A DNA stretch of 64,000 bases from Laetmonice hystrix (lineage: Eukaryota). The DNA lies in NCBI GenBank assembly GCA_965235115.1, contig OZ249436.1:3908001-3972000 (forward strand), in the 5' to 3' direction. Within the stretch, counting starts at the first letter, position 1. Each line of letters begins with the position of its first letter. The notes below the pieces were generated by a model. That model was not told the origin of the DNA and did no database searches. It worked only from the letters and a program-made list of their open reading frames with translations. The position numbers and the translations under genes were made by a program. This document shows positions 33,726 through 36,700 of the stretch, one piece after another.

Positions 33726-36700
33726 TTACGACAGAGTAGCAGCTTCTTCCTTCAGGCGATCCTTCTTGAGTGGACCCTAAAACACCAACGCAATAAAACT
33801 TGTTTTAAAACTTTGTAGGAATAACCGAAATATACGACACTAACCTTTCAATACCTGGAAGGGTGCAAAATTATTAAACGAGGGAAAGTTAAGATTTTTG
33901 TTGTAGTGTTTCGTATTGGACTTGTCAAGAGTTTGACAAGACAATATAGCGACACAACAGTTTATTCTCCACAGGTTAGGGAACGTCACAGCGACAACCA
34001 TCTATGCTGCCATGGAGCTGGCCTGTGGTGTTTGTGCATACACAATTTTAATATTCTCTCTTTCACGTGAGCCATCTTATGACTAACGTTTTAATGTTTT
34101 CATGAGCTTCTACAATTGGCTTGATCCATCTCTTACATGTGTTTCTAAACTGATTCAGACCTTCAAACACTGCTGCTTCACTTGGTATGTCAGATAAGAT
34201 ATGAATGCTTGTTTATGTTGTAGTGTTTCGTATTGGACTTGCCAAGGGTTTGACAAGACAATATAGCGACACAACAGTTTATTCTCCACAGGTTAGGGAA
34301 CGTCACAGCGACAACCATCTATGCTGCCATGGAGCTGGCCTGTGGTGTTTGTGTATGCAGAACTTTAAACAGCAAGCTAAAACAGCATTTCAATTACCCA
34401 TACCATGACTGGTGTTTCAAAGTTTTCATGAGCTTGAACAGTTGGCTGGGTTTAATTTCTGAACTGATTCAACGACTTCATACACTGCTGCTTCAATTAT
34501 GTGAGTCAAATACAATAAAAATATTTCCTTAAGTTTACTTCCAAGTTTAAGGGCTTTAAAAATACAATAGATATGAATGCTTGTTTATGTTGTAGTGTTT
34601 CGTATTGGACTTGCCAAGAGTTTGACAAGACAATATAGCGACACAACCGTTTACTCTCCACAGGTTAGGGAACGTCACAGCGACAACCATCTATGTTGCC
34701 ATGGAGCTGGCCTGTGGTTTGTGCATGCACAATTTTTATATTCTATCTTTCACATGACCCATCTCATGACTAATGTTTTAATGTGCTTCTACAGTTGGCT
34801 TGGTCTATCTCTTACAAGTGTTTCTAAACTGATTCAAGGGCTTCAAACACTGCTGCTTCACTTATGTCAGTCAAATAAAATAAAAATATTTCCTTAAGTT
34901 TACTTCAAAGTTTAAGGACTTAAAAAATACAATAGATATGAATGCTTGTTTCTGTTGTAGTGTTTCGTATTGGACTTGCCAAGAGTTTGACAAGACAATA
35001 TAGCGACACAACAGTTTACTCTCCACAGGTTAGGGAACGTCACAGCGACAACCATCTATGTTGCCATGGAGCTGGCCTGTGGATTGACTGACAAGATAAA
35101 AATCTAAAATTTCATCTACCAGCCATTAGAAATTACCAGACCCATAAAAAGATGCGATCTAAATGATTATTACTCTAAATGACTTAATTTAAAGGGTGTG
35201 CTATCAAAAACGTTCAAAAGATACAAATATATATGGAGAAAATTTAACACTTTAGCATCTATTCTCGTCCTCTACAATATAAACCTCAATAAAGGATGTT
35301 GTAGTGTTTCGTATTGGACTTGCCAAGAGTTTGACAAGGCAATATAGCGACACAACATTTTACTCTCCACAGGTTAGGGAACGTCACGGCGACAACCATC
35401 TATGCTGCCATGGAGCTGGCCTGTGGATTATGTATAATTTTAAAGATCTCCCAAAAAAATTTCCAATTCATTATCTAGCATTTATGAACTAAAATGGAGG
35501 ATTACATTGTCCCATATATACCACTAAATTATCTGCTTTGCTAACTGTTCAAGCTTGAAATTTGCTTTTAAAAAATTACTACGGTTCGTCACAGCTTCAA
35601 ACTTATCCCTGCAAGATGCCAGCCAAAAAAATATTTCCAATTATGGTTTGTTTACCTTGGTTTTTAATAAATGGCTAAATAAACATTGCTACAGGTTGGT
35701 TATGTTGTAGTGTTTCGTATTGGACTTGCCAGAATTAAGCAAGGCAATATAGCGACACAACAGTTTACTCTCCACAGGTTAGGGAACGTCACGACGACAA
35801 CCATTTATGTTGTCATGGAGCTGGCCTGTGGAATGGATTCTACAGAGCAGGGGTCAGACTATAGACTGTTTGACACTTGGTACTACTGGGGGCAGTGACT
35901 TGTCAGATTAGCTCCAAAAGCCATTCAGCCTGAAGGTCTATTCCAAGTTGCAAAAGACTACCAGTAGTTCTATCCTACTAGTTTTGGACATTCTAACACC
36001 TGCTAAGTTCCAGTACGATGCTACAACACAAATTGTAATGTGAAATATCACTCCTCCTGGTCACTGAAAACATTCTAATTTGAATACGCACCATGAAGTT
36101 GGACTTCTCTTGGTGTGTCTGGAAGCGACCATGTCCAAACTTGCTGGATGTATCGATGAACTTTAGGTTGATCTTTTCCAAGGCCCTTCTCTTGGTATGA
36201 GTCAGGAGTGACTGAAAACATACAATGCAGAGTTAATTACTGCTGCCATGAATTCAAGTTTTGGACACAGAATTTCATTGTCTTGTACTGATAATCATAC
36301 AATAATCATGCCAAAACTAAATATTCAAGGGGCCTACCTTTCTCAGGGTAAGTACCCTCTTCTTGGGACCCATGGTGCAACCAAGGATCATAATGAAGTC
36401 GTTGTTGACCTCGCCATAGTGTGGGAAACCTCCCATTGGTGTGATGGTCTTCTCAGTCAAATCATACTCTGTTGAGGCATTGTTTTTGATCACCTTTCCA
36501 TCCTTGGTGTGAATTCCCTGTAAAAATATTATCGGTGTTTAAAACAAGCCATTTCAGCTTTATTCACCATATAGTATTTTAATCACTGTGTGTTATCAAC
36601 AGGAAGGCACACAAGGTAAGGACACATCTGCAAAGGGGCATCGACAGGCAGGTTTCAAAATTGGCCAAACCACACGACACTCGTGAACAAGGCAAAACTC

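Follow-up and report, generated by a model that had tools for sequence, protein, structure and literature searches.

We analysed a 64,000-nucleotide stretch of Laetmonice hystrix contig OZ249436.1 (hereafter the window; positions are counted from its first letter), in which six tandem units of about 130 nt occupy the last intron of RpL3, the gene for ribosomal protein uL3. Taken as one statement, the results make it likely that these units are six paralogous genes for box H/ACA RNAs that guide at a site of 28S ribosomal RNA (rRNA) near which uL3 acts. On the first part of this statement, that they are genuine H/ACA small nucleolar RNA (snoRNA) genes, our confidence is high. The array represents an H/ACA snoRNA family that had not been annotated and, outside flies, a further case of the intronic cluster arrangement. 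The initial annotation of this DNA had described it as a tandem array of six sense-strand H/ACA-type units in one RpL3 intron, and the repeats, the folds and a spliced joint agree in bearing this out.

Six H/ACA-type units in the last RpL3 intron

The array spans positions 33899-35831 and consists of six direct repeats (33898-34038, 34215-34355, 34587-34727, 34952-35092, 35296-35436 and 35701-35841), whose starts are separated by steps of 317, 372, 365, 344 and 405 nt. Its youngest part is reported by Tandem Repeats Finder as 2.4 copies of a 365-nt period. All six copies have their RNA sense on the minus strand, the same as RpL3. Their conserved core of 130 nt (129 nt in the copy at 35703-35831) runs from the initial base of the 5' lower stem (CCACAGG) to the final ACAACA, stopping 3 nt past the first ACA, and conservation in the alignment is lost immediately outside this core on both flanks. 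The copies are given below in their order in the pre-mRNA, with their scores against a covariance model built from the six copies and their minimum free energies (MFE).

Copy 1 (the sixth of the initial annotation), 35703..35831, minus strand: H/ACA-type unit, 157.1 bits, MFE -36.6 kcal/mol, z -3.07; first in the pre-mRNA and most diverged, with a 1-nt deletion in apical hairpin 2
Copy 2, 35297..35426, minus strand: H/ACA-type unit, 169.8 bits, MFE -40.1 kcal/mol, z -2.99
Copy 3, 34953..35082, minus strand: H/ACA-type unit, 169.6 bits, MFE -38.0 kcal/mol, z -1.97
Copy 4, 34588..34717, minus strand: H/ACA-type unit, 169.4 bits, MFE -37.1 kcal/mol, z -1.89
Copy 5, 34216..34345, minus strand: H/ACA-type unit, 168.5 bits, MFE -38.2 kcal/mol, z -2.16
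Copy 6, 33899..34028, minus strand: H/ACA-type unit, 169.3 bits, MFE -38.8 kcal/mol, z -2.75; last in the pre-mRNA, with the 3' splice site 122 nt downstream

A genome-wide dispersed repeat, which the initial annotation had named as a possible undoing of its proposal, is not what was found. Searching the whole assembly (627,469,777 bases, 35 contigs) with the repeat returned six DNA matches, all of them in the array, so the element is not dispersed. The covariance model was applied to the window and to the locus of an RpL3 paralog; in the 64-kb window it detected only these six copies, the next matches (17.8 and 16.1 bits) being antisense overlaps of the copies themselves. Variants specific to individual copies occur at columns 20, 23, 28, 39, 40, 65, 70, 71, 89 and 94-105 of the alignment (A2).

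Folded individually, every copy forms two hairpins (MFE -36.6 to -40.1 kcal/mol, z -1.9 to -3.1), and the succession of hairpin, hinge, hairpin and tail that defines the box H/ACA class is present in six of six. The layout initially described for each copy, hairpin-ANANNA-hairpin-ACA, can thus be seen in all the folds. Its elements have the following positions in alignment A2:

Columns 2-8 with 55-61: lower stem of hairpin 1, CCACAGG/CCUGUGG
Columns 9-15 (CCAGCUC) and 44-54 (ACGUUCCCUAA): pocket (internal loop) of hairpin 1
Columns 16-25 with 34-43: upper stem of hairpin 1, nine pairs
Columns 62-67: H box, AGAGUA in four copies and AGAAUA in two
Columns 75-124: second hairpin
Columns 126-131: tail, ACAACA

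The H box directly follows the 5' lower stem and matches ANANNA, with its three fixed A's invariant and variation confined to the free fourth position. All copies end in ACAACA, and the MFE fold of four of the six leaves the second ACA free. Standard pairs fill 99.4% of the 179 cells of the proposed structure, a share that falls to 26-47% if the partners are shifted by 1-3 columns. Changes in the upper stem of hairpin 1 keep the pairing (one G-C to A-U, two G-U to G-C and three G-U/A-U). Over the whole structure there are one compensatory change, G-C to A-U in that same stem of the copy at 35703..35831, and seven one-sided changes that preserve pairing; the single broken cell and the single gapped cell are both found in this most diverged copy.

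The RpL3 exons of the window were read from minus-strand open frames, which places the array as follows:

33777..36091, minus strand: last RpL3 intron, 2,315 nt, GTGCGT...TTTTAG, containing all six copies
33726..33776, minus strand: coding part of the last RpL3 exon, ending in the stop codon; sequence read, with exon-level depth in run X4
36092..36213, minus strand: penultimate RpL3 exon, ending in ...QEKSNFM at 36092, with an approximate 5' limit; in the open reading frame (ORF) 35993-36232, with a depth of 6,193-18,549 in run X4

Four sequencing runs cover the stretch, none of them recorded as RNA; by its depth pattern, one (X4) is RNA-like, the other three being DNA-like. In X4, the depth over RpL3 is 2,800-18,500 in exon bins against 0-16 in intron bins. 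One X4 contig, with a depth of 8,639, connects 33775 with 36091 and lacks the 2,315 nt in between, with ends that read CT..AC on the plus strand (cut +1), i.e. GT..AG on the RpL3 strand. Because this joint removes 33777-36091 whole, the six copies lie in one spliced intron and on its sense strand. This is the arrangement, at least two snoRNA genes in one spliced intron on the host's sense strand, by which an intronic cluster is recognized. X4 contigs mostly lack cover over the repeat cores; as contigs of repeated sequence they are uninformative on snoRNA levels, and the segment 35129-35302, uncovered in every run, is likewise uninformative on expression. Loose contig ends occur within the array at 34456 and 34897 in all three DNA-like runs, and several spacer positions differ. 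Possibly, the sample contains another arrangement, or another allele, of the array.

The RpL3 exon that we tested has 1,762 relatives among database proteins at E up to 1e-10, none of them identical. The best named ones are from Polistes canadensis (93% identity), Eufriesea mexicana and Odontomachus monticola (92%) and Schistocerca (90%), followed after the insects by annelid, brachiopod, stomatopod and spider proteins at 85-89%. Its best PDB chains are 6xu6_CB and 4v6w_CB (111.8 bits), which we take to come from Drosophila ribosomes; vertebrate-type chains score about 90. The vertebrate frame in which the host gene had initially been set does not fit an exon closest to insect and other protostome proteins, which points to a protostome invertebrate as the host.

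C/D snoRNAs were also observed in two other introns of this RpL3 gene, one in each. The RNA at 38548-38619 (minus strand) is SNORD81-like (28.8 bits, cut-off 50), with C and D boxes, a terminal stem and 13 nt complementary to positions 389-401 of the species' own 28S. The one at 37144-37247 (minus strand) is Z13/snR52-like (23.2 bits, cut-off 47) and has, beside its D box, 11 nt complementary to positions 429-439 of the own 18S.

Predicted target, constraint and possible release of the RNAs

We took 10 kb of ribosomal DNA (rDNA) from the same genome and located the 18S, the 5.8S (a single contiguous piece of 153 nt) and the 28S (4,368 nt) in it with Rfam. As initially proposed, the pocket strands of hairpin 1 (CCAGCU and CGUUCCCU) are complementary to 28S AGGGAACG-UG-AGCUGG. 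The own 28S contains AGGGAACGUGAGCUGG once, at 3787-3802, and in the genome search a slightly longer pattern of the site matched 15 rDNA copies, with no match for its reversed control. Among the 1,425 uridines of the 18S, 5.8S and 28S, the best candidate is the U of the dinucleotide U3795-G3796, with 6 Watson-Crick pairs on the 3' side, 8 pairs on the 5' side and no mismatch. The pocket thus offers the bipartite complementarity around an unpaired U-N that characterizes guides (6+8 Watson-Crick bp). When the strands were shuffled, none of 150 shuffles reached the observed value with a tolerant score (mean 9.99, maximum 13.5), and none of 1000 reached 14 when only Watson-Crick pairs were counted (mean 7.2, maximum 13).

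The initial annotation had identified the site with yeast Psi2944 (snR37) and human Psi4491 (SNORA10), the latter presumably in an older human numbering of U4521. In the available text of a preprint (10.64898/2026.03.20.713187), the 5' hairpin of yeast snR37 guides Psi2944 in helix 90 (H90), and yeast U2944 is equated with human U4521, for which SNORA10 is the predicted guide. The bases at +2, +4, +9 and +15 from U3795 (A, C, U and C) agree with yeast A2946, C2948, U2953 and C2959 as numbered there. Because these flanking bases fit the yeast H90 positions, the target assignment stands: judged by its sequence context, U3795 is the helix-90 site beside the A loop that is Psi2944 in yeast and U4521 in human; in the fly numbering of the preprint, the homologous site works out as U3476. 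That the six RNAs can pair with H90 follows from the sequence. As for the 28S genes themselves, copies are found at less than 50 kb from several contig ends (on C1, C5, C16, C17 and C30), and arrays with a spacing of about 19-29 kb occur on C13 and C12.

Hairpin 2 had been left without a target, and none was found in the own rRNA or in U1, U2, U4, U5 and U6. For its pocket (columns 79-89 and 110-120), the best rRNA candidate, 18S U146, scores 10 with a mismatch and two G-U pairs, a value equalled by 89 of 150 shuffles. The best score against the own U1, U2, U4, U5 and U6 is 7.0 (equalled by 237 of 300 shuffles), and plain complementarity to the 10 kb of rDNA including spacers amounts to four nine-mers, compared with a shuffle mean of 4.65. 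Furthermore, the would-be pocket strands pair together in the MFE folds of all six copies (UAUUG with CAAUA), leaving no large internal loop. Hairpin 2 is therefore most likely a structural, protein-binding module that carries the ACA box, with no guide function. Spliceosomal small nuclear RNA genes are highly multicopy in this genome and form tandem arrays at C1:21.87-21.94 Mb, C4:36.5-36.6 Mb, C5:25.9 Mb and C8:23.1 Mb; among them are U5 genes about 1-4 kb apart on C1, U2 genes repeating every 7.4 kb on C4, and arrays of U1 and of U4.

Comparison of the copies shows where the core tolerates change. Only 16 of its 130 columns are variable. All 16 are among the 92 columns outside the lower stem and pocket of hairpin 1, the fixed H-box positions and the ACA, which together account for 38 columns and are invariant (one-sided Fisher p = 0.0026); this agrees with the initial statement that boxes and hairpin-1 pocket are spared by substitutions. 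In hairpin 2, the 30 columns of the lower stem and would-be pocket include 1 variable column, and the variation is concentrated in the two apical parts. The relationships of the spacers were also described correctly at the outset. Those between the copies at 34953, 34588, 34216 and 33899 (A-D of the initial annotation) are homologous, and since three of the five spacers are still 72-83% alike, part of the expansion of the array is recent. The two remaining ones, nearest the 5' splice site, align near the shuffled background, whereas the cores of the two copies on that side are 91-97% identical to the others (91-99% among all copies). Among the three pairs of copies whose spacers are homologous, 8 of 390 core positions differ, compared with 87 of 569 aligned spacer positions. 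Such a pattern would be expected under purifying selection on an RNA with the same ends as the conserved block.

A second intron-containing RpL3 gene, 86% identical over the exon tested and with the same exon pattern, is found about 47.6 Mb further on the same contig:

C1:51588600-51598599, about 4270-7366 within that segment, minus strand: RpL3 paralog

Its homologous last intron (about 250 nt) contains no copy, the best score of the covariance model being 6.8 bits over 10 kb with filters off. Thus, the array arose in, or was kept only by, the RpL3 gene of the window, where it probably formed by tandem duplication in the last intron of this highly expressed gene.

With their common strand, no shared upstream element and a spliced intron around them, the six units would be transcribed within the RpL3 pre-mRNA. 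If they follow established H/ACA biology, dyskerin/Cbf5, Nop10, Nhp2 and Naf1/Gar1 would bind each of them co-transcriptionally and, after splicing and debranching, exonucleases would trim the intron to the edges of the particles. Because exonucleases stop at the first and last particle, the internal copies would need endonucleolytic cuts, at least one in each of the five internal spacers if more than the outermost copies are to mature. The recursive or cryptic splicing suggested earlier as another way of freeing the copies is unsupported, because intron 33777-36091 has no splice-like site inside (no GTRAGT, AGGTRAG or polypyrimidine-AG) and X4 has a single joint, which spans the whole intron; two GTAAG pentamers occur in two of the homologous spacers. 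Each released RNA of about 130 nt would pair through the pocket of its 5' hairpin with 28S helix 90 on both sides of U3795, as computed here, and would then direct the conversion of this uridine to pseudouridine. We put the maturation of all six copies at an even chance. Thanks to the copy-specific substitutions, one small-RNA data set could show whether internal copies of a polycistronic intron mature in animals, and the release of six RNAs would, if true, represent an endonucleolytic route of snoRNA processing in an animal outside flies.

Competing explanations and other features of the window

A number of results weigh against reading the array as six H/ACA guide genes. At gathering thresholds, Rfam has no match in the whole window. 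A relaxed search (E up to 10, region 33500-36200) produced 12 matches, and over the array these are only sub-threshold matches to SNORA41 and scattered noise; the best, to SNORA41 (RF00403), reach 20.7-27.9 bits in five of the six copies, compared with a cut-off of 80. RF00264 (named SNORA64, gathering score 35 bits), which we assume also covers SNORA10, is not among the matches of that search, and a genome search with it had no match at E up to 1, albeit in a weak search that scored 43 of 28,972 candidates. Covariation does not prove the fold either, because 84 of 500 column shuffles reach the observed score. Given such weak covariation among six near-identical paralogs, gene conversion confined to the cores could also have produced their conservation.

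The target site itself raises two further difficulties. The base immediately 5' of AGGGAACG is C in the own 28S, so that the next guide base (A53) is mismatched; in yeast and human a U stands there, just 5' of the guide-paired stretch. Furthermore, the uppermost pocket bases, A44 and C15, could themselves pair with the target U and with the G after it; all 16 nt of the target might then be paired, with no dinucleotide left free.

A further objection concerns spacing. From the base at which pairing in the 3' pocket strand begins, it is 17 nt to the H box, made up of 8 paired and 2 unpaired nucleotides and 7 of the lower stem; the upper stem and the H box are 18 nt apart. The initial annotation took 17 nt as the upper limit. 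In the portions of the sources available, the rule for the distance between the target U and the H/ACA box is 14-16 nt (PMC6800473) or 13-16 nt (PMC1636440, figure legend), which puts the array one nucleotide beyond it. Searching rRNA for uridines that hairpin 1 could serve at the canonical distance of 14-16 nt gave none above the shuffle mean. In addition, a single-nucleotide deletion in snR37 that was meant to misplace U2944 abolished its modification, according to the part of the preprint available (10.64898/2026.03.20.713187). The off-rule spacing lowers the claim that the RNAs modify their site, not the claim that they are H/ACA RNAs. Because of it, we only lean towards the prediction that the array RNAs convert U3795 to pseudouridine. 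An otherwise well-formed guide that breaks the 14-16 nt rule would be a natural test case for the strictness of this rule in vivo.

Perhaps only one or a few copies mature, the rest being young and effectively neutral duplicates kept similar by unequal crossing-over or gene conversion, with no function in dosage. The expansion is partly recent, as the three spacers that are 72-83% alike indicate, no copy is present in the last intron (about 250 nt) of the paralogous RpL3, and the loose ends at 34456 and 34897 in the DNA runs may reflect a second arrangement of the array. Exonucleases alone would moreover release only the RNAs beside free ends, and the spacers have no splice-like sites. Nevertheless, we consider this explanation unlikely: boxes, stems and pocket are intact in six of six copies, the two oldest included, with 0 of 38 columns varying, and the cores have diverged about seven times less than the homologous spacers (8/390 against 87/569). 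Isoforms clustered in one intron are also an arrangement described in Drosophila, in what is available of PMC3089462.

The spacing and the pairing could also be read differently, as signs of real H/ACA particles that bind helix 90 and modify it poorly or not at all, acting as folding or assembly chaperones for the peptidyl-transferase region like snR37. A 17-nt distance outside the 14-16 nt rule and a target of which all 16 nt, including the U and the next G, can pair would be compatible with this. From the preprint (10.64898/2026.03.20.713187), as far as its available text goes, we note that snR37 variants unable to modify U2944 still rescue growth and restore the structure of the peptidyl-transferase centre (PTC), that loss of snR37 (snr37-delta) aggravates rpl3-102, placing SNR37 in the same genetic network as RPL3, and that the 5' hairpin of snR37 guides while its 3' hairpin has no open pocket, as in the array. 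We nevertheless judge a chaperone without effective modification quite improbable. Yeast modifies the helix-90 uridine, the human counterpart is a predicted modification site, and a 14-bp bipartite guide that brackets exactly U3795 looks like a modification guide. Two unpaired A's lie between the guide duplex and the lower stem which, if bulged, would bring the stacked length to 15. Moreover, the elements bound by the accessory proteins of snR37, as far as these are described, are absent from the 130-nt RNA. There is a slim chance that the array is a minimal, six-fold amplified counterpart of snR37, whose main job would be to keep H90 of the nascent 28S open or correctly folded for uL3 and the early pre-60S machinery. 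With every uL3 transcript, a PTC chaperone would be supplied in a matched, multiplied dose; on this view, the 17-nt spacing and the full complementarity of the 16-nt site would reflect adaptation to binding, not catalysis.

That the array is no gene at all, being a structured tandem repeat or a set of other hairpin RNAs (e.g. intronic microRNA precursors) with a chance match to rRNA, is very improbable: it would agree with the lack of an Rfam family at threshold, with the non-significant covariation and with an opposite strand that folds about equally well (z -2.45), but that strand has no terminal ACA, the H box and ACA appear to be correctly placed, with the ACA and the fixed H-box positions invariant, the bipartite match of 14 Watson-Crick bp falls on a known conserved pseudouridine site and was equalled in none of 1000 shuffles, the limits of the conserved block are those of the predicted mature RNA, and C/D snoRNAs occupy other introns of the same RpL3. 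Thus, we retain six paralogous H/ACA genes with a predicted helix-90 target as the preferred explanation.

Elsewhere in the window, Pfam searches of 12 long ORFs detected only low-complexity noise and two domain matches:

47336-48139, plus strand: TMEM70-family match, E 2.9e-05
49893-50633, minus strand: WKF-domain match, E 1.1e-12

At 30220-30570, open frames that overlap on the two strands have recurring peptide-like words in common (…GRARGRDESSVGGLRTGS…), which suggests a tandem repeat with a unit of about 64 nt. The window also has a (GA)n tract (32366-32578, 213 nt) and a 24-nt tandem repeat (32245-32302).

Comparison with known H/ACA RNAs

Intronic clusters of H/ACA genes were initially said to be known mainly from Drosophila, for which Huang et al. 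(2004, J Mol Biol 341:669) is reportedly the primary paper. The Drosophila precedent holds, rice is named too, and the arrangement is established. Within the text available of the two sources, several H/ACA genes, often isoforms, share one intron in Drosophila (PMC3089462, PMC2780460) and in rice (PMC2780460); silkworm is described as having one snoRNA per intron (PMC3089462). The array resembles the Drosophila and rice clusters in having several sense-strand H/ACA genes, often isoforms, per intron, and the hosts are often genes of the translation apparatus. It differs from the Drosophila clusters in that its host is not a fly and has its 5.8S in one piece of 153 nt, whereas Drosophila 5.8S splits off a 2S RNA. 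Furthermore, no Drosophila Rfam family matched the array at E up to 10.

To SNORA41, the array bears only a generic resemblance. Over the full length of this family, an alignment is obtained with five of the six copies, which have in common with it the CCACAG/CUGUGG lower stem and several stretches of the hinge and hairpin 2. Nevertheless, the 3' pocket strand of the array is 4 nt longer, and the guide sequences differ.

By its predicted target, the array RNA would be equivalent to yeast snR37 and human SNORA10. SNORA10 likewise lies in an intron of a ribosomal-protein gene, RPS2; it also guides an 18S site, of which we found none here. Its likeness to the array is that it is the guide predicted for the homologous uridine, U4521, in the available text of the preprint; the difference is that the human RNA has one copy per intron. 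The parallel with snR37, as far as that text describes it, lies in the same target uridine, a guide in the 5' hairpin, a 3' hairpin without a usable pocket, and a link with uL3, which in yeast consists in the aggravation of rpl3-102 and here in the location of the guide inside the uL3 gene. In contrast, the architecture of snR37 is far longer than canonical, its 5' hairpin alone measuring 204 nt, with extra branches that bind Upa1-Upa2 and Rbp95 (ibid.). The array RNA is minimal at 130 nt, intronic and present in six copies, and no sequence similarity to snR37 was detected. As a whole, snR37 is about 386 nt long and is encoded by an independent gene.

The location of an H90 guide in the uL3 gene may well be chance, because ribosomal-protein genes host many snoRNAs. 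Nevertheless, a guide for a site near which uL3 acts sits in the uL3 gene, and yeast genetics newly links snR37 with RPL3. The array would thus provide the likely guide for the conserved helix-90 pseudouridine in this lineage and, next to the Drosophila and rice precedents, represents a clear polycistronic intronic H/ACA cluster in a non-drosophilid invertebrate.

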